64,000 nt of DNA from a virus (Duplodnaviria; Caudoviricetes). Where the stretch lies: the IMG/VR virus record IMGVR_UViG_3300011008_000038, positions 22,871 to 86,870 of that record, one strand, 5' to 3'. The translations under genes were made by a program, and so were the position numbers. Positions 394-22,876 of the stretch are shown piece by piece; the stretch's first letter is position 1; the number at the start of each line of letters is the position of its first letter. The notes beneath the pieces are model-generated. The model searched no databases and was not told the origin of the DNA. It was given only the letters and a program-made list of their open reading frames with translations.

Positions 394-3300
394 TTATAAT
401 TGGAACCAGATATCACCCATACAAAATTCTTCTGGATTATGAGCTGATATTATTGTGTTACGTAAACTTCTTCTCTCATAATTTGTATGTTCTTCAACTT
501 TTGTATATGATGGAATAGTTTGATCTCTAGCAATTTTACTTCCAGTAATATTTCTATCTTTTATTTTTCTTTCTGTAATAGAATTATCATATATATGAAT
601 TTCTTTAATCATTTCTTCTTGCGCTAATTTGTTTTCTCTAATTGTATGATTAAGAATTTTATCATTCGTCACAGATTCATCTAATAAATTATTAGTATGA
701 ACAGAATTATTTTCTAACATATTATGATTAATTTTCATCCACAGAGGTTCATCATTTGCATTAATAACTCCCAATATCACATTATCAGTATTAGATGATT
801 CAATGAATTTAGTTTTAATAATCCAATCATCTACCATATCATGTGTTACTTTAGTATATACAGGATCAGAATTTGCATCTATTACTGCCAATACCATATT
901 ATCTTCTATTGATGTAAATAATTTTCTACTTGTAATTGCTCTATCTTGAATAAATGATGTGATAACAGAATTATCCATTAATGGATAACCTTCAAATACT
1001 TTTTCATATGTTTCATATAAAGTAACATCAGCAGCTTTAGTAAATTCAGATTCAAAATTATTTAATAATATATCATATAGTCTTTCTTCTTTAATTGGTG
1101 TAATTACTTGATTATTTATTAAAACATCTTCCATATAATCTATATTCAATTCATCATCATTTATAATATCATGAATCAATTGTCTACTAATTGAAGAAAA
1201 TACATTATCTTTATAAATTATATTATCTGGAGTTAAAGGAATCGATATTCCATTCATCAATTCTAATATAGTTTCTTCTTTTATCGATGTAATGAAAGAA
1301 TAATCTTTATTTCCAAAACACATACATTCATTATCACGATATCCATTATAAATATCATAATAATTATTATCAGCTTCTTCAGGTTCTTCTTCATTATTTA
1401 AAATTCTAATTAATTTATTTTCATCTATGGATACAAATGTAGTTTCTAAATTATCATCAGTATAATGTTTAGATGGTAAAGGTTCTATTTCTCCAAGTAT
1501 AATTCCTTTAATTTGATCATATTGTATTGGTCCAATTTTATTACTATAATCAACAAATGTTGGACTATTTGGTGCAGGATTGATCTCATCATTCAATATT
1601 TTATTGAGATCTTCTTCAGTGATTCTTTGTATACGTAAATGATTTGCATCTATTTTTTCAGGATCTGGTGGCTGTAAACAACAAATTTTAGCTTGTAACT
1701 TTTCATAAAATTCTGCACCATTTCTTACTAATTTATCATTTACCCATTGACTATCAACAATCTCATTACCAGTTCCTAATTCATCTGATGATTCTGGAGA
1801 AGGTCTGACATCTAAAGTTGGAGAGCCTAATAAATTTATATCTCTTTGTAATTTATTTGTGGTAACTGCAGAATTATCAATCATTTCTTCTGATATAGTT
1901 GTAAATTCTACATCATTATTTTTTATACCTAAAACTTTTGGTTTATCTTCAGTAATCTCTAATTTAGATAATGGAATTGAATGATCTTCTACTTTATCAA
2001 CATTAATATCAATTTTATCAATACCTGTTATTTCATTGATTCGTTCGTTTACCCATTTGGTATCAGCAATTGTTCCATCATTGGAAAATTTATCAGGATG
2101 CTCTTCAAGATGAGGTGAACCAAATAAAATTAAATCTGGTAATAGTTTAGATGAACTGATTTGTTGATCTTCAATCATATCATTCTGCAACAATAAAAAT
2201 TGAGGATTATCAGTATCATTCTTTACACCAATTATTCTATTTGGAAATTCTGATTTTTGTAATCTATCTAAATCAATACCATTATCTTTAATGAAATCAG
2301 ATGTTAATTTTTTCCATCTAGGAATATCATTATCATCATTCCCAATTGTTAATATCATTGATTTTGATCCGTCATGAAACCATGTACGTTTCATTTGAAC
2401 TAATTCTGAATCAGGAATTATTTCAGTTTCCGGTACTTCGAATATTTCTGGATCTAAATGATAACGTTTAATACTTCCAGTTGGAATATGTCTATCCTGA
2501 AGAAATTCATCTTCTACCATATCAGAATTTATCTTCATATATTCTGGATGATCATTTCTATTATGAGCTGCTAACACAACATTATCATTATTTGCAGGGT
2601 ATATTTTATCTTTAGTAACAGCACTTTCACTAATCATTTGTGAAGATACTTTAGTCCATTTAGGATCAGTACTCATGTAATCAGTAGCTAATACAGAATA
2701 TGAATCATCTGAATGTTGAATTTTATCCAACGTAACTGATTGATTCTTAATATTTTGAGTATTTACTGATTCTAAAGCTAGCATATTTTCTGTTACTTTA
2801 GAATAAACAGGATGTAGTGTTGAATCCGAAGCCAACACCATATCAGCTTCATTAGCTTTATATATTTTTTCTGATGTAACAGATGATTCTTTTAAATGTC
2901 TTGGTAATATAGAATCATTATCAATTACTCTTGCTGAAACAGAATCATCTGCAAATTTAGATTCAGTAACAGTTTTATCAATTATATTATTACTTCCAAC
3001 ACTATTATCATCTAACATTTCATGATTAACTTTACCCCAAACAGGATCTTGATTCGTTTCATAAACACCAAGAATTCTATTCTTAATATTAGATGAAAAT
3101 AATACTCTTCCATCTACACTTCTATCAGCTAAATTAATATTGTTTAATACGGATTGATGAATTAAATCTTCAACGTAATCATGATCTGCAATTGGTATTC
3201 CATTCACTGTTGGTCTACCTATTAAATCAATATCATCAGATAATTTTTCAGATGTAACAGATTTATCAATAAGATGTCTAGTTTCTATTAGATCATCCAA

Positions 3301-4674
3301 TAACATATCAGATGATATTGGAGACCAAACAGGATCTGTTCCATGTTGATTTACAAATAAAAAGCTTTTATCTTGATTAGATGAAAACAATTTATTTCCT
3401 GTTACAGCTCTCGAAGAAATATGTCCTTCTCTAATACTTTCACTAAAAATCTTTCCACTTGTTACACTACCTTCAGCTAATTTATCACTAGTAACACTAA
3501 AATTTTTAATTGCTCTTTCTGTTACCGATTCATCACCTAAATTGATAGCAGTAATTCCTTTATCTTTAATATGAATAGATGAAATTGCTTTATTAATAAT
3601 ATTACCAATCAATTCACCATTTTCACCTATGTCAATATCAACAGTATCGGAAGTATATCCTTCTACATATAATGATGATAAATCAATATTGATTTTTCTA
3701 CCAGAAACTTCAATAAAAGTCATTACATGTGTTTCTTGGTCAAATTTTACTTCATCAATTAATTCTCCAGTACCAATGATAGTTGATTCTGTTGTATTAT
3801 CATTAAATACAAATATTAATTTTCCACTTAATACATCATATTGTAAATCTACAACATATTTAAAATTTTCGACATTTATACCGAGATCACGTAATATTCT
3901 ATTAATTTTATCCAATTCATTTTGAGTAGCTATAGAGATTGGTTTATTCATATCCGATGTATTATTAACATTTCCCAATCCAATTTGTTCTTTAGTTACA
4001 AAATGGGGATTATCAAAATCATTGATATGTGAATCAAAATCTTCTTGACTGGCCGCTCCTATTGATGATGGAATTAAATTATGTGGATTAGCTGAATTAT
4101 TGATATGATCATTTAATATATCCGATGTATTTGATAAATTTGTATTTAAATCATTAATATCATTATCTAATCTATCAGCTAATGAATTTATTATATTGGA
4201 TAATCCTGATTGTGAAATTAGTCCAAAATCATCATTGCCCAATTCACTATAAATAGTTGGTCTATTTATAATATTTTTCCATAATAATTTTTCTGATATT
4301 GTTCCATCAAATACACCATATTTTGTTAATAACATTCCAACAGCTTTTTCAGTTGGAATTTTATCATCACTCCATAAATCAGGATCAACATCTATAGTAT
4401 GAGTCATAGGAACTGCTCCTATAGCTCCTTCTATTCCACCATATTGTACAAGATAATTACTTGATTTAGCTGGAAATATTTTTTGTTTATATGCCAAACT
4501 TTGATAGATTTCATCTAAAATATCTTGTAAAGATTTACTATTCAGATCCATTGCTTCATGAACAGCATCTATTGTTGTTGCTGGCCATATTTCTTTATAG
4601 TTAACATTTTCAGAAGGTTTTGTATTAGTGATTTCTGCTCGTAATAATTCAATACCTCTTTCTACAACTGGCAT
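394..4674 (-). CDS. long tail-fibre-like virion protein (1426 aa)
   Basis: HINxxxNPH / VTKEQIGLGNVNNTSD motifs, many SVTxxK[IL] repeats, periodic DPxWxK[IV] units and a C-terminal GDIWF motif, all typical of phage fibre proteins. Confidence 0.7.
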   Translation of the reverse strand: MPVVERGIELLRAEITNTKPSENVNYKEIWPATTIDAVHEAMDLNSKSLQDILDEIYQSLAYKQKIFPAKSSNYLVQYGGIEGAIGAVPMTHTIDVDPDLWSDDKIPTEKAVGMLLTKYGVFDGTISEKLLWKNIINRPTIYSELGNDDFGLISQSGLSNIINSLADRLDNDINDLNTNLSNTSDILNDHINNSANPHNLIPSSIGAASQEDFDSHINDFDNPHFVTKEQIGLGNVNNTSDMNKPISIATQNELDKINRILRDLGINVENFKYVVDLQYDVLSGKLIFVFNDNTTESTIIGTGELIDEVKFDQETHVMTFIEVSGRKINIDLSSLYVEGYTSDTVDIDIGENGELIGNIINKAISSIHIKDKGITAINLGDESVTERAIKNFSVTSDKLAEGSVTSGKIFSESIREGHISSRAVTGNKLFSSNQDKSFLFVNQHGTDPVWSPISSDMLLDDLIETRHLIDKSVTSEKLSDDIDLIGRPTVNGIPIADHDYVEDLIHQSVLNNINLADRSVDGRVLFSSNIKNRILGVYETNQDPVWGKVNHEMLDDNSVGSNNIIDKTVTESKFADDSVSARVIDNDSILPRHLKESSVTSEKIYKANEADMVLASDSTLHPVYSKVTENMLALESVNTQNIKNQSVTLDKIQHSDDSYSVLATDYMSTDPKWTKVSSQMISESAVTKDKIYPANNDNVVLAAHNRNDHPEYMKINSDMVEDEFLQDRHIPTGSIKRYHLDPEIFEVPETEIIPDSELVQMKRTWFHDGSKSMILTIGNDDNDIPRWKKLTSDFIKDNGIDLDRLQKSEFPNRIIGVKNDTDNPQFLLLQNDMIEDQQISSSKLLPDLILFGSPHLEEHPDKFSNDGTIADTKWVNERINEITGIDKIDINVDKVEDHSIPLSKLEITEDKPKVLGIKNNDVEFTTISEEMIDNSAVTTNKLQRDINLLGSPTLDVRPSPESSDELGTGNEIVDSQWVNDKLVRNGAEFYEKLQAKICCLQPPDPEKIDANHLRIQRITEEDLNKILNDEINPAPNSPTFVDYSNKIGPIQYDQIKGIILGEIEPLPSKHYTDDNLETTFVSIDENKLIRILNNEEEPEEADNNYYDIYNGYRDNECMCFGNKDYSFITSIKEETILELMNGISIPLTPDNIIYKDNVFSSISRQLIHDIINDDELNIDYMEDVLINNQVITPIKEERLYDILLNNFESEFTKAADVTLYETYEKVFEGYPLMDNSVITSFIQDRAITSRKLFTSIEDNMVLAVIDANSDPVYTKVTHDMVDDWIIKTKFIESSNTDNVILGVINANDEPLWMKINHNMLENNSVHTNNLLDESVTNDKILNHTIRENKLAQEEMIKEIHIYDNSITERKIKDRNITGSKIARDQTIPSYTKVEEHTNYERRSLRNTIISAHNPEEFCMGDIWFQL

Positions 4675-8523: not shown

Positions 8524-9920
8524 TTATATATCTTCAACTAATGTGTCTGGATCAATGGTTATTAAGTTTATGCTCGAGTCATGTTTAGCCTTCATACCCA
8601 AGTTAAGAGAGGTGTATGATAGTTGTATACTAAAAAGTCCTGCCATTTGTATATTTAATTTATTGAATAATTCACCTGCACATTTGTTACAAATTTTATC
8701 ATTCAAACATGTCATTGGTGATCTCATTTCAACTGTCTTACCAATATATGAATCAATATTTTCCGATGTTAATAATTTTAATTGAGATCCTTCTTTAATG
8801 TATGAATACAATAAATCTTTTTTATTTGTTTTATTTACAGTGATTGGAACTGTTCTTTTTGTTCCACAATCAGTACCAGGTTCATCAACTTGCATCATTT
8901 GTAATAAAGCCAATAATTTTTTACCAATATAACCTGATTGTCTAACTGCTATACTCATTGGATACTGTGATGCTAATATTGATGCATACTGACTAGGTAT
9001 ATCTTTGATTTCCGATCCTGTCATTAACGATGAATCAACAAAATCAAATCTATCATCTATCTTATTCATTACAGGACCTCTCATAATTGCATTATTACGA
9101 TAATTATTTCCAAAATTAAGGTTACCACTAAGATATTGATTCATACCAGGATCACCTTCTAATTCTTTTTTGGCATAGTCAATTAATTCATTTACCATTG
9201 AAACCATTGCATCAAGATCATGATTATTAATTCTTTCACCATATTTTTTCCATAATTCTTTTTTCTTTGCTTCCATTCCTGGTAATGGTTTACTCATCTT
9301 TTCACTAATCGTATGGGATAATATACCAATTAACCAAAATACCAATGTATCACGATGATTGATATAATCATCAAATTGTGATTTAGTTATGTCATCATTC
9401 ATTAAGTATTTTCCAATGAGATCATCCAATTCTCTTATTTTACTACCAACTGTTTCATTCATATACTTTCTAATTTGAATAGTTCCTGAACCTTGTAATA
9501 CAAATTTATTGAATATGAATCTACCTATTGTAGATTCTATTTTTGGTTGTCCGTCGTAAAAATAATTTGCTGGAACTATAAATTTTGACCATGGTTTATA
9601 TTTACTTTCTTTTCTATTTGCATTTCTACCATTGGTAATATCTACAGTTGCAGCAAAAAATTCAACCAACATAGATCTTGTAATATCATCAGGTTCTGTA
9701 TTTAATAATCTATCAACATCTTCTTTCGATGTATCAACTGCTTTTATTTTATCATCAATTTTTGTTAATTCATATGAAGAATCAAATGTGTCGACAATTA
9801 CGAATTTACCATTAGTACCATTAATGTTTAAGCCGCTAATTTTTTTATTCATAATTTCTTCACATTCAGCATTTGCTTCATCTGACCAAATACCTCTGAC
9901 TGATACTGTATCTCCGTCAT
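8524..9920 (-). CDS. rpoC: phage multisubunit RNA polymerase beta-prime, exon 2
   Basis: Frame upstream of ATG 9852 reads DGDTVSVRGIWSDEANAECEEI; downstream CGT..RSPMTC..CNKCAGE Zn site and trigger-loop-like NLGMKAKH. Confidence 0.88.
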
Positions 9921-11312
9921 TATTTTATATTATAAATAAAAATATTACAACACATCTACATATATGTAATCTTAAAAAATTACTGACGAGGAGATGTGTA
10001 TTAATATGTCATTATCACAATCTAAATTAGAACGTAATCGTGAATTATTAAAAAATTTTATTTATGATCAACCAATTGATCCTGCTTATAGCATACCATT
10101 TGGTTCCAAAGCTTTTGGATGCATATATTGTATTCTTAATAAAATTAATAAGAAACGCTATATTGGTGCAACATATGCTATATGGGTTGGAACAGCTCAT
10201 GAAGATCCAATTACACAAATTAAAAAACGTGCAACTGATTATTTATATGACTACAATAAAGCTATAAGTGAAACTAGTTCATCACAAAAAACTTTAAGAC
10301 CTATTATAGAAGCTATGGTTAAATATGGATTTGAAAATTTTATTATATATCCAATATGTGAAACTACTGAAGATACTCATTATGATTTAGAAAAATATTT
10401 TATTAGTTTATATAAAACATTAGATCCAAAATTTGGATATAATGTAGTATTTGGTGGAAATAGTATTAGAAAAATTGGAAGTAGAATGACTGCCGATTAT
10501 AAACGTACTAGATCAGATCCAATTATTTGTATTAATCTAAATGAGAAAAAAATTATATTTTCAGAATCTATGAAATTATTTGGTGATTACATGAATTCAA
10601 GTAAAGATATGATTAAGAATGTAAATCGTTCTGCATTATCATATAAGGGTTGGTTTGTATTTTATATTGATAAAGAAAAACGAGATTATATTCTGAATTC
10701 ACAATATGACCCAAAATTCAATCCAACTAGAAAACATTCTTCAGAAGCATTAGCTTTTTATACAGGTCTACATAATTCAGTGTCACATTATTTAGATAAA
10801 GATGATAAAACAAATAATGAATATTTTTCTGATTTTGAAGTATTACCAGAATTAAAATATTCAGATTAATATTTTTTATTTAGCTTAATATTTCTATTAA
10901 GATTGGACTATCTCTTCATCCTATAATATCAAATTATAGGAGGTTGGCACTACGAAATATAGTTTTCATTTCCATATTCCTCTCAATTGAAGCAGATTCA
11001 TTTCTGCTTCAATTTTTTAGTCTCTACATCTTCTCAATATTTTTTTTAAATATTGAGCTTGACACGGTATTACCAGCTATCTTATAAATAAAATAATTTA
11101 TAAGACCTCAGGTTCTCTTACGAAGTGTATTCGTTTGTTTAAATAGATGAATTGTCATAGGATTCATCCCAACTTATATAACTTCTACCGTTAGCAATAT
11201 AATCAACTATATATCACACCGCTTGTTAAGCGTTCACCAACTTTTTCTTATACTGTATTACTACAGTAGATGACCATGACCATTTTCATTGAAACATAGT
11301 ATCAAGGGGTTT
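9921..11312 (-). mobile_element. group I intron (IA-like), 1392 nt, in the RNAP catalytic codons
   Basis: P7 strands AGAGACUA (11018-11025) and UAGUCC (in 10905-10916), P4 ACGGU/ACCGU, P3 GUUGGU/GCCAAC, P9 hairpin with GAAA loop (10884-10901); IGS GUCAUGGUC (11272-11280) pairs with exon junction GACU|AUGAC. Confidence 0.9.
10006..10869 (+). CDS. GIY-YIG homing endonuclease, antisense within the intron
   Basis: GCIYCILNKINKKRYIGAT, YGFENF, LEKYFI, GYNV motifs; SD GAGGAG at 9988-9993. Confidence 0.88.
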   Translation: MSLSQSKLERNRELLKNFIYDQPIDPAYSIPFGSKAFGCIYCILNKINKKRYIGATYAIWVGTAHEDPITQIKKRATDYLYDYNKAISETSSSQKTLRPIIEAMVKYGFENFIIYPICETTEDTHYDLEKYFISLYKTLDPKFGYNVVFGGNSIRKIGSRMTADYKRTRSDPIICINLNEKKIIFSESMKLFGDYMNSSKDMIKNVNRSALSYKGWFVFYIDKEKRDYILNSQYDPKFNPTRKHSSEALAFYTGLHNSVSHYLDKDDKTNNEYFSDFEVLPELKYSD

Positions 11313-12783
11313 AGTCGCCTGACATAACTCGAAGATGAGACGAAGCAACCTTTAAAGTATCAATAAAATATTTTGCGACATCCTCATCTGAAAATTTATA
11401 ATCTTTTTCTAATCCAAAATATTTTGCAACATCTTCTGGAACATTAACATGTACTTTGGGATAATATTTATATTCTCCTCCATTGTATAAAATATGCTGA
11501 TGTTCTTTTGTTGTTTCAACATTTATTTTCGTAAAAAACATACCTTTATCAATTCCAACTGGATATCTAGAAACCATTACATGTCTATTTTTACATGTGT
11601 GATAACATGCTAAATACATGACATCACATACCGTTAGTGGTCTATTTAATTCTTTATAAACATTATTTGGTAAAATTTCTTTACCTTTAAATCTATAATA
11701 CACTTCAACAATTTCTTTCTTTCCATTAGCATATGTTTTTTGCATTTTCAACATTATTGGATCAAATCTACTATCTGCATTTAGAATGAAATTATTAATC
11801 ATCTTATTAATATTCTTATCGGAGAATTGTAATTCTGGATCCACAATTAATCCTTTAACCAATTCTTTTGTTTTCGGGTCAAAAAATTCACTCTCATATT
11901 GTTTGTTAATTAAAAATCTCATAAAGAAATCTTTAATATAAGCTTTTATGAATGGATGAAATGCAGAAGCACACTGTGAAATTGGAACTGCTGATTCTGC
12001 AAGACTTACCATAGAATCTGATATTCTTTCATGATTATATGAAGGAGCTGCAATAACTGATCTTACTCCCCAATCTGTTGATTTACCAAGTAATGATCTA
12101 CGAATAAGTCCTTGTTTAGTTGCCAATAACTCTTTAAAATAGTTAAATATATCAACTAACAATGATTGTATTTTTGATTGTGTTGCAAATTGTTTTCTTG
12201 CAAATAATCCACCTTGTTGAAGAAGTGCAACATTACGAATTACTGATGTGTATAAATTATTTAATTCATTTACATAATCTGAAGAATCTAATGTACCAGA
12301 AAGCATGATATCTCTATAAGAAGGTGGACAAACTAATAGTTTGTTTGTAAATACTAAATCTTTTGGCAATTTTGTAATTAGATCTTTATTAATTGTATCG
12401 GCAGATAAACTTACACTCCAATCAATCTTATCCCAATTATCATATAAATCATCTAAACCAGTCCACGCATCTGGACCAGAATCTTCTTGGATATAATTAT
12501 TTTTTATTGAAAATTTTTTCTGTCCTGAAACTAAATAAATTATATCTTTAAATAATCTATTCTTCATGACATTTTGATATATGTGTGGATGTAGAAAATG
12601 TCTTCTCAAATCAATATATGCATATGTTGATAGACGATCAGTTCTACTTAATCCAAATATTGAATTTGATAGAATACCTTCATCATCAAAAGTCATCTTT
12701 GTAGAAAACAGATGAGGAGATGATACTTCTTTTAATGAATTAACATCTACCAATTTATCAATATTTAATATTTCGATTTTCAA
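11313..12783 (-). CDS. rpoC: phage multisubunit RNA polymerase beta-prime, exon 1
   Basis: EGILSNSIFG, LLVCPP..RD, GLIRRSLLGKSTDWGVRSVI, VSRYP; ends MSGD just before the intron. Confidence 0.9.
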
Positions 12784-22824: not shown

Positions 22825-22876
22825 TTTTTATTTTTTCAAAATTAAAAAATTGAACAATATCCCGAAGAATTATTTT

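Follow-up and report, generated by a model that had tools for sequence, protein, structure and literature searches.

Introduction

The closest described counterpart of the element analysed here belongs to the virion RNA polymerase (RNAP) of the phages AR9 and PBS1, where intron 2 of the β' gene g145 is a group I intron accompanied by a homing endonuclease and inserted in the DYDGD catalytic loop. The AR9 gene (L139, KU878088.1 118000-123300) is annotated as a join of three pieces with the homing endonucleases g146 and g147. A comparable arrangement has been described in the jumbo phage PhiPA3 (gp210), with a mobile group I intron and a homing endonuclease in the RNAP β-subunit gene, adjoining conserved catalytic Asp residues (Birkholz et al. 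2024, PMC11620839); this endonuclease targets intron-less alleles of competing phages (PMC11620839). Here, we analyse a 64,000-nt stretch of viral DNA (positions 22,871 to 86,870 of the IMG/VR record IMGVR_UViG_3300011008_000038; hereafter, the window) in which a predicted group I intron splits the orthologous β' gene in the same loop and ends in A. The AR9 intron, located by mapping the intron-less Goe21 protein onto AR9, interrupts the motif at DYD↓GD (the arrow marks the splice junction), 5 nt downstream of the window site.

A terminal guanosine (omega-G) is regarded as one of the defining features of group I introns, and the automated calling of their boundaries presupposes it. Nevertheless, the Coxiella burnetii intron Cbu.L1917 reportedly has A as its last base and self-splices both in vivo and in vitro. 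That one C. burnetii 23S rRNA intron lacks the canonical omega-G is stated in the title of Raghavan et al. 2007 (J Bacteriol 189:6572; reference 20 in PMC3428280). At the other end of the intron, U at the 5' splice site is a further requirement in one recent intron database (PMC11835236).

Host gene and exons

The window comes from an 86.9-kb virus fragment with an estimated completeness of 32% and a G+C content of 22-28%, whose source is an uncultured AT-rich jumbo phage of the gut. Megablast of the locus against isolated phages and an exact-pattern search of IMG/VR for its 3' junction gave no match, and an exon-2 profile search of genome contigs retrieved no relatives.

On the coding (minus) strand, exon 1 ends in ATG TCA GGC GAC T at 11313 and is followed by AA, such that an unspliced message would run into TAA directly after SGD, while exon 2 begins with AT GAC GGA GAT at 9920. 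Once joined, the two exons form a single 955-codon frame carrying SGDYDGD. This re-check agrees with the exon ends, the motif and the frame given in an earlier reading of the same DNA, made from the sequence alone (the original prediction). The 1,392-nt insertion itself holds no sense-strand frame.

In tblastn searches, exon 1 showed 29-33% identity to the N-terminal halves of jumbo-phage β' subunits, including AR9 g145, Goe21 rpoC1 and those of Staphylococcus, Listeria and Yersinia jumbo phages. Exon 2 matched the C-terminal half of the AR9 virion RNAP β' (g264) from residue ~59 on, and the unsplit gene of the Fusobacterium phage JD-Fnp1 (L001), a single intron-less coding sequence of 930 aa, from residue 1. 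Both g145 and g264 are annotated as virion RNAP subunits. Pfam models detected neither exon 1 nor exon 2. The DxDGD Mg-binding loop of the double-psi β-barrel, present after joining, and the homology to both the N- and C-terminal halves of known β' subunits mark the host gene as a predicted unsplit gene for a virion-type multisubunit RNAP β'. As for gene organisation more generally, the virion-type β' is a single gene of ~940 aa in the clade of the window (8524-12783, minus strand) and in Fusobacterium phages. It is split in two after the double-psi β-barrel in AR9, PBS1 and phiKZ-type phages, the halves of the AR9 type being distant genes.

Intron-less homologues read straight across the break point. 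Goe21 has ALGGDYDGDTVSLRG (in short form, GGDYDGDTVSLRG), JD-Fnp1 has GMDGDLDGD, and more than 30 further intron-less homologues from IMG/VR carry an uninterrupted G[GA]D[YF]DGD, the full DxDGD being kept in every homologue. The alignment therefore places the junction where it had been proposed. Translation of exon 1 would end after SGD, and exon 2 has its first in-frame ATG (at 9852) 23 codons beyond DGD. Consequently, only splicing would yield a subunit with all three catalytic Asp residues, which bears out the earlier suggestion that splicing is needed to make the catalytic polymerase subunit.

Guide sequence and splice junction

Searches with endonuclease and exon profiles recovered twelve further introns from other metagenomic phages (designated below by L numbers), inserted at the same site and all with the same succession of exon 1, intron with an antisense endonuclease homologue, and exon 2. 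Eight complete introns were aligned over the core.

The internal guide sequence of the window intron can pair with both exons. Its GGUC pairs with GACU of exon 1 to form P1, with a G·U wobble at the 5' splice site, and its GUCAU pairs with AUGAC of exon 2 to form P10. These nine consecutive pairs are those originally proposed; when the first 75 intron bases were shuffled 200,000 times, a 9-bp complement appeared by chance in 695 cases (0.35%). The U·G pair at the 5' splice site was found in 7/7 aligned relatives, the exception being L005, with C-G. More importantly, the guide changes together with the exons across the family: L012 combines P1 GCGGAUU/GAUCCGC with P10 AUGACG/CGUCAU; L017, GGGGACU/GGUCCCC with ACGAUGG/CCGUUGU; L022, GGCGACU/GGUCGCC with UUGAC/GUCAA; L005, GUGAC/GUCAC with UACGA/UCGUA; and L018, a P1 of 7-8 bp with P10 AUGAC/GUCAU. 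The 5-bp P10 of the window (AUGAC/GUCAU) is thus one instance of a helix that co-varies with exon 2 throughout the family.

Since the guide sequences co-vary with both exons, in P1 as well as in P10, this comparison fixes the predicted splice junction at GACU↓AUGAC. An alternative cut, GACUA↓UGAC, would give the same mRNA, and the last intron base would again be A. In fact, given that the intron-less homologues keep the motif, the mRNA that restores it should read ...GAC UAU GAC..., and the last intron base is A under either cut.

Two further details of the guide region deserve mention. In the window (11272-11285, minus strand) this region is a tandem AUGGUC-AUGGUC duplication, in which a good P10 is obtained from the second copy alone. 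In L005 (5473-6837 of that locus, IMGVR_UViG_3300011005_000104), the closest relative of the window, the junction is shifted by one base (GAC↓...CCAG↓UAC GAC). The 5' splice site follows a C, with a Watson-Crick C-G pair instead of the near-universal U·G wobble, and the guide UCGUAGUCAC is perfectly complementary to the ligated exons.

Fold of the intron

We evaluated covariation over 15 helices and 85 pairs in the eight introns, with P7 added as a pseudoknot and with slid pairing partners and 500 shuffles as controls. Paired cells amounted to 95.7% versus 33-45% in the slid controls, a value that was reached in none of the 500 shuffles (0/500), and compensatory changes occurred in 46 of the 85 pairs versus 6-11 in the slid controls. 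RNAalifold, applied to the same eight introns, recovered P1, P2, P3, P4, P5, P6, P7.2 and P8. Covariation thus reveals the group I core helices, P3-P8 and P4-P6 with the P3/P7 pseudoknot, and P7 contains the guanosine-binding site, a G-C pair beside a bulged nucleotide. Because of its hairpins between P7 and P3', the intron can be assigned to subgroup IA.

Rfam was less conclusive. No match was found in the whole window at the gathering threshold, nor did a whole-window search by E-value yield anything at 0.001 or better. A local search with Intron_gpI (RF00028) matched 11000-10884, from the P7 3' strand to P9, with 40 bits and an E-value of 2.7e-8, without reaching the gathering score of 50. 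The expected agreement with Rfam group I models was therefore obtained for the P7-P9 part, at a score below that threshold. Rfam also misses the relatives of the window intron; its model handles this insertion-rich IA family poorly. With the intron core as query, the matches retrieved by blastn were all short ones to the core, from Enterocloster and crAss-like phages. Taken together, the covariation and the P7-P9 match agree with the P3, P4, P7 and P9 originally proposed and identify the insertion as a group I intron. The P9 hairpin was found only in the window and L005; in the other members the endonuclease gene begins almost directly after P7.

The 3' tail of the intron shows some local features. 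A strong hairpin, ACACAUCU...AGAUGUGU, lies at 9950-9990 (minus strand) and overlaps the ribosome-binding site and start of the antisense endonuclease gene. The same interval contains AUCUCC(U)CGUCA, nearly complementary to exon 2 UGACGGAGAU. In L005 and in L022, GGAGAU of exon 2 can pair with a separate AUCUCC located immediately ahead of the 3' splice site. A closing helix between the A/U run that follows P9 and the 3' tail was rejected, as it was no better than chance in A/U-rich sequence and was not conserved in L005.

The terminal base and its distribution

The window intron lacks omega-G, its last base being A beside a canonical G-binding site, as the original prediction had noted. Homologues fix the junction, and a 228-nt contig from the independent Logan assembly of run X1, a gut metagenome that is probably the source sample, is identical to the window over 9837-10064.

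Ten of the twelve same-site relatives end in G (L005, L012, L013, L014, L015/16, L017, L018, L019, L023 and L024). The A state is found in three of the 13 lineages, namely the window, L022 (...CUCCACA↓UUGAC) and L026 (...GCAAUUA↓AUGAU). That ten introns end in G within G-poor tails implies that the junction has been correctly assigned and that selection favours G. L022 belongs to a 265-kb contig, with open frames of 477 and 462 codons on either side of the junction and a matched P10 of 5 bp. In a tree of intron cores, the window grouped with L005 (ending in G) and L022 with L023 (ending in G, with cores 98% identical), whereas L026 stood apart. As the A-ending introns are not each other's closest relatives, the A state arose, or was lost, more than once. 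No column separating A-ending from G-ending introns was found among ten aligned cores. An A ending is rare, although it has a precedent.

An automated survey of the terminal base in 70 IMG/VR loci with the P4-P5 motif, based on P1/P10 complementarity and frame continuity, was discarded because it was unreliable in AT-rich DNA and missed known junctions. Its best apparent A-ending intron, in a DnaE-like gene (L126), proved false: homology puts the real 3' splice site 84 nt upstream, after a G.

Table 1 Features of the intron-containing RNAP β' locus, in window coordinates.
Feature	Position	Strand	Description	Basis or remarks
Exon 1	11313..12783	-	490 codons plus first base (U) of the Tyr codon; ends ...M S G D + U	Open reading frame listing, tblastn
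Group IA intron	9921..11312	-	1,392 nt; P7.1/P7.2-type insertions between P7 and P3'	Partial Rfam match, eight-intron alignment, covariation; ends set by homologues
Internal guide sequence	11272..11280	-	GUCAU-GGUC, 5' of P2	Co-varies with exons at the homologous position in relatives
P2 hairpin	11251..11268	-	UACUGUA-GUAA-UACAGUA	7/7 pairs with compensatory changes across eight introns
P7, 5' strand	11018..11024	-	GAGACUA, with bulged A and the G of the G-binding G-C pair	Invariant in 8/8 aligned introns, A- or G-ending
P7, 3' strand	10905..10910	-	UAGUCC, inside conserved GAAGAGAUAGUCC	Invariant in the family; agrees with Rfam consensus AAGAUAUAGUC
P9 hairpin	10884..10902	-	UCUUAAUA-GAAA-UAUUAAG	Aligned to the last RF00028 hairpin
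Putative GIY-YIG (SegE-like) homing-endonuclease gene	9994..10869	+	291 codons; 3' of P9	Strand opposite to intron and host gene
Last intron nucleotide (omega position)	9921	-	A	Sequence; Logan contig; comparison with homologues
Exon 2	8524..9920	-	Last two bases of the Tyr codon, then DGDTVSVRGIWSDEAN... to stop; 464 codons	
Nearest downstream G	9918	-	First base of an Asp codon	Splicing after 9918 would be in frame, giving SGDYGD with one catalytic Asp lost

Proposed splicing mechanism and alternative explanations

The reading that we favour on comparative grounds, with a probability of roughly 0.6, is that the intron splices functionally at the A junction. The first step would be normal, with free guanosine attacking after the U of the U·G wobble in a short P1 of 4 bp. 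For the second step, the 5-bp P10 stacked on P1 would be the main element holding the 3' splice site, and the terminal A would fit the G pocket poorly. Exon ligation would proceed with A in this pocket, probably more slowly or with more leakage than in the G-ending relatives, yet enough to supply the polymerase subunit. The same ending in L022 and L026, likewise unaccompanied by a compensating core change, suggests that this intron family tolerates the loss of omega-G. A wider proposal, which we put forward tentatively, is that the terminal G is dispensable throughout the family. The 3' splice site would then be set by P10, possibly aided by the long 3' tail, and the A and G forms would both work and interconvert.

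Several observations weigh against functional splicing at the A junction. A canonical G-C pair should not recognise A. In Tetrahymena, changing omega-G to A reportedly blocks exon ligation unless the binding pair is changed as well (Price and Cech 1988; Been and Perrotta 1991), which argues for impaired splicing. P10 is no stronger in the A-ending introns than in several G-ending ones, and in L026 it has only 3 bp. The P1 of the window has 4 bp versus 7 bp in most relatives, a difference that could reflect decay. Concerning the data themselves, the search for RNA runs containing the window sequence found none, retrieving only DNA contigs from one gut-metagenome sample, and word depth in run X1 is low (about 3-6-fold, with about 4-fold locally in the confirming contig). 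All the same-site sequences are metagenome assemblies, which may include phages that are not viable.

Several of these points would also be accounted for if the A-ending introns were splicing-crippled alleles, derived from a recent G-to-A change or from loss of the G, making little or no functional β' and perhaps carried by defective phages propagated through co-infection. Such an origin would be consistent with a G-binding site that has remained canonical without a compensating core change, with a P1 eroded to 4 bp and with a G that is clearly the selected state (10/13 lineages), and the exclusively metagenomic, low-depth data leave room for it. Nevertheless, the A state occurs in three separate lineages, and both the window and L022 have fully open exons and endonuclease genes with no other sign of decay. 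In addition, the P10 of L022 fits its own exon 2 while its 98%-identical sister L023 has a G and an unmatched P10. Finally, an assembly consensus represents the majority genotype of a replicating population, and the Coxiella intron Cbu.L1917 reportedly self-splices although it lacks omega-G. We therefore consider this explanation unlikely, although it deserves serious attention.

Three other explanations, even taken together, appear improbable. In the first, the ribozyme would use the next G (9918) as its terminal guanosine, and the main product would contain SGDYGD, either as a dead subunit or as part of a switch between active and dead forms. This G is 3 nt downstream and in frame, and group I ribozymes with a mutated terminal G do fall back on nearby G residues. 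However, P10 in the window has 5 bp at the A junction versus 1 bp at this position (and 0 bp in L022). Furthermore, the same +3 G is present in every family member, as exon 2 always starts with NN-GAY, and is thus not special to the A-ending introns, and DxDGD is complete in all homologues. Use of the +3 G as the main 3' splice site is, consequently, quite improbable. Even less probable is that a sequencing or assembly error at 9921 conceals a true G. The low word depth and the single sample would allow for it, but the independent Logan assembly agrees, the position is outside any homopolymer, and two unrelated contigs from other samples have the same state at the homologous position. Lastly, the insertion might stay in the RNA and the two halves be made as separate polypeptides, as jumbo-phage β' is naturally split slightly downstream of the motif in AR9 and phiKZ (PMC7598289) and an in-frame ATG exists at 9852, but this is scarcely credible because the second protein would start 23 codons after DGD, leaving exon 1 to end at SGD and two of the three catalytic Asp lost, and because the complete covarying group I fold has a guide matching both exons.

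If the wider proposal is correct, the A form may throttle the output of virion-polymerase β', or give some Asp-deleted product from the +3 G. The choice of the 3' splice site matters here, since a slip of one codon would remove a catalytic Asp from an essential polymerase. The family pairs A- and G-ending introns with an identical catalytic core at one site, and includes a C-G member (L005), which makes it a natural test of P10 versus the G pocket in 3' site choice. Should the terminal G indeed be dispensable, this would be the first protein-coding and phage example, and the first natural allelic series on the contribution of omega-G.

The endonuclease gene

The open frame on the opposite strand of the intron has a GGAG ribosome-binding site suggesting that its second ATG (10006) may be the true start. 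Its protein scored 20.7 bits with the Pfam GIY-YIG model, against a cut-off of 22.6, and SegE_GIY-YIG matched 5/5 family members (best E-value 3.9e-6). The motif IYCI..N..KKYIG, together with R, E, N and many other columns, is invariant in the family. No sequence match for the protein was found in PDB. Homologues are 30-73% identical and all of them antisense within the same intron site. The closest relative (P0002, 73% identity) is encoded on an 8.3-kb Logan contig, and the window's own endonuclease was also found on a second contig. The intron thus carries an intact putative GIY-YIG homing-endonuclease gene and, judging from these sequence features, is probably a mobile group IA element.

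Related and neighbouring introns

Other introns occur close to this one. L023 (reverse complement; sense ~1984-2181) and L040 (2560-2600) have a second, small group I intron of ~190 nt that ends in G. It is inserted between MG and GD (MG↓GD), upstream of the main site by 7 nt; between its two introns, L023 retains a mini-exon of just 7 nt, GGTGACT. L026, a short contig (reverse complement; sense ~1310-1660), has a further group I intron upstream in the same gene, after YITRYPLNFS, and thus at least two introns in its β' gene. Several Staphylococcus jumbo phages break at query residue ~409, and AR9 g145 has its intron 1 at residue ~389. As for the Mg loop itself, at least four insertion points fall within ~12 nt across phages, which makes it a recurrent landing place for mobile introns. 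Such repeated insertion bears on intron-mediated competition between co-infecting jumbo phages.

The pair L022 and L023 (sense ~3053-3441 and ~3059-3453, respectively) is peculiar. Their cores are 98% and their exons 96-97% identical. The 3'-most 390 nt of the intron, comprising the endonuclease N-terminus and the tail, and the opening codons of exon 2 show no relationship, as would result from a recombinational swap. L023 ends in G and its P10 is no longer matched; L022 ends in A and its P10 is matched. A related group I intron with a sense-strand open reading frame, ending in G, is found in L126 (3483-4318; IMGVR_UViG_3300043006_000143) and L097. It lies in a DnaE-like polymerase gene just before DIDID (...KERVELP↓DIDIDL), and hence the same core type is again inserted in catalytic Asp codons.

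Comparison with known systems

T4 introns have their endonuclease genes looped out of peripheral elements and are inserted in conserved active-site codons. In the Rfam alignment, those of td, nrdB and sunY (IA2; I-TevI and I-TevII) share with the window a phage IA-type core with the P7 strand AAGAUAUAGUC, but their endonuclease genes are sense and the introns end in G; the window intron, moreover, remains below the Rfam gathering score. An endonuclease gene opposite to the ribozyme strand is known from nuclear rDNA introns (e.g., L2066; PMC9548176), which differ in that they reside in eukaryotic rDNA, encode His-Cys box enzymes and have spliceosomal introns (PMC9548176), whereas the window intron is found in a phage protein-coding gene and encodes a putative GIY-YIG enzyme.

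Going by the title cited above, Cbu.L1917 resembles the window intron as a natural group I intron without the canonical terminal G. In contrast, it belongs to subgroup IB2 and interrupts a bacterial 23S rRNA gene instead of a phage protein-coding gene, and it offers no series of endonuclease polymorphism. The PhiPA3 system concerns β and not β', has an HNH instead of a GIY-YIG enzyme, and nothing unusual is reported about its splice sites. The intron of AR9 ends in G (...UUUUG↓GGU) and its endonuclease is Hef-like and encoded on the same strand as the host gene; in addition, the AR9 β' is encoded by two distant genes, in contrast with the single 955-aa gene of the window. No DNA similarity was found between the AR9 and window introns by blastn.

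The original prediction had, accordingly, overstated the novelty of the locus, as a Coxiella intron lacking omega-G had been published and a group I intron was already known in DYDGD. The splitting of the polymerase catalytic motif is thus familiar from AR9. What sets this locus apart is the antisense GIY-YIG gene located 3' of P7/P9 in all members, the unsplit β' gene, and an A ending that recurs within one intron family.

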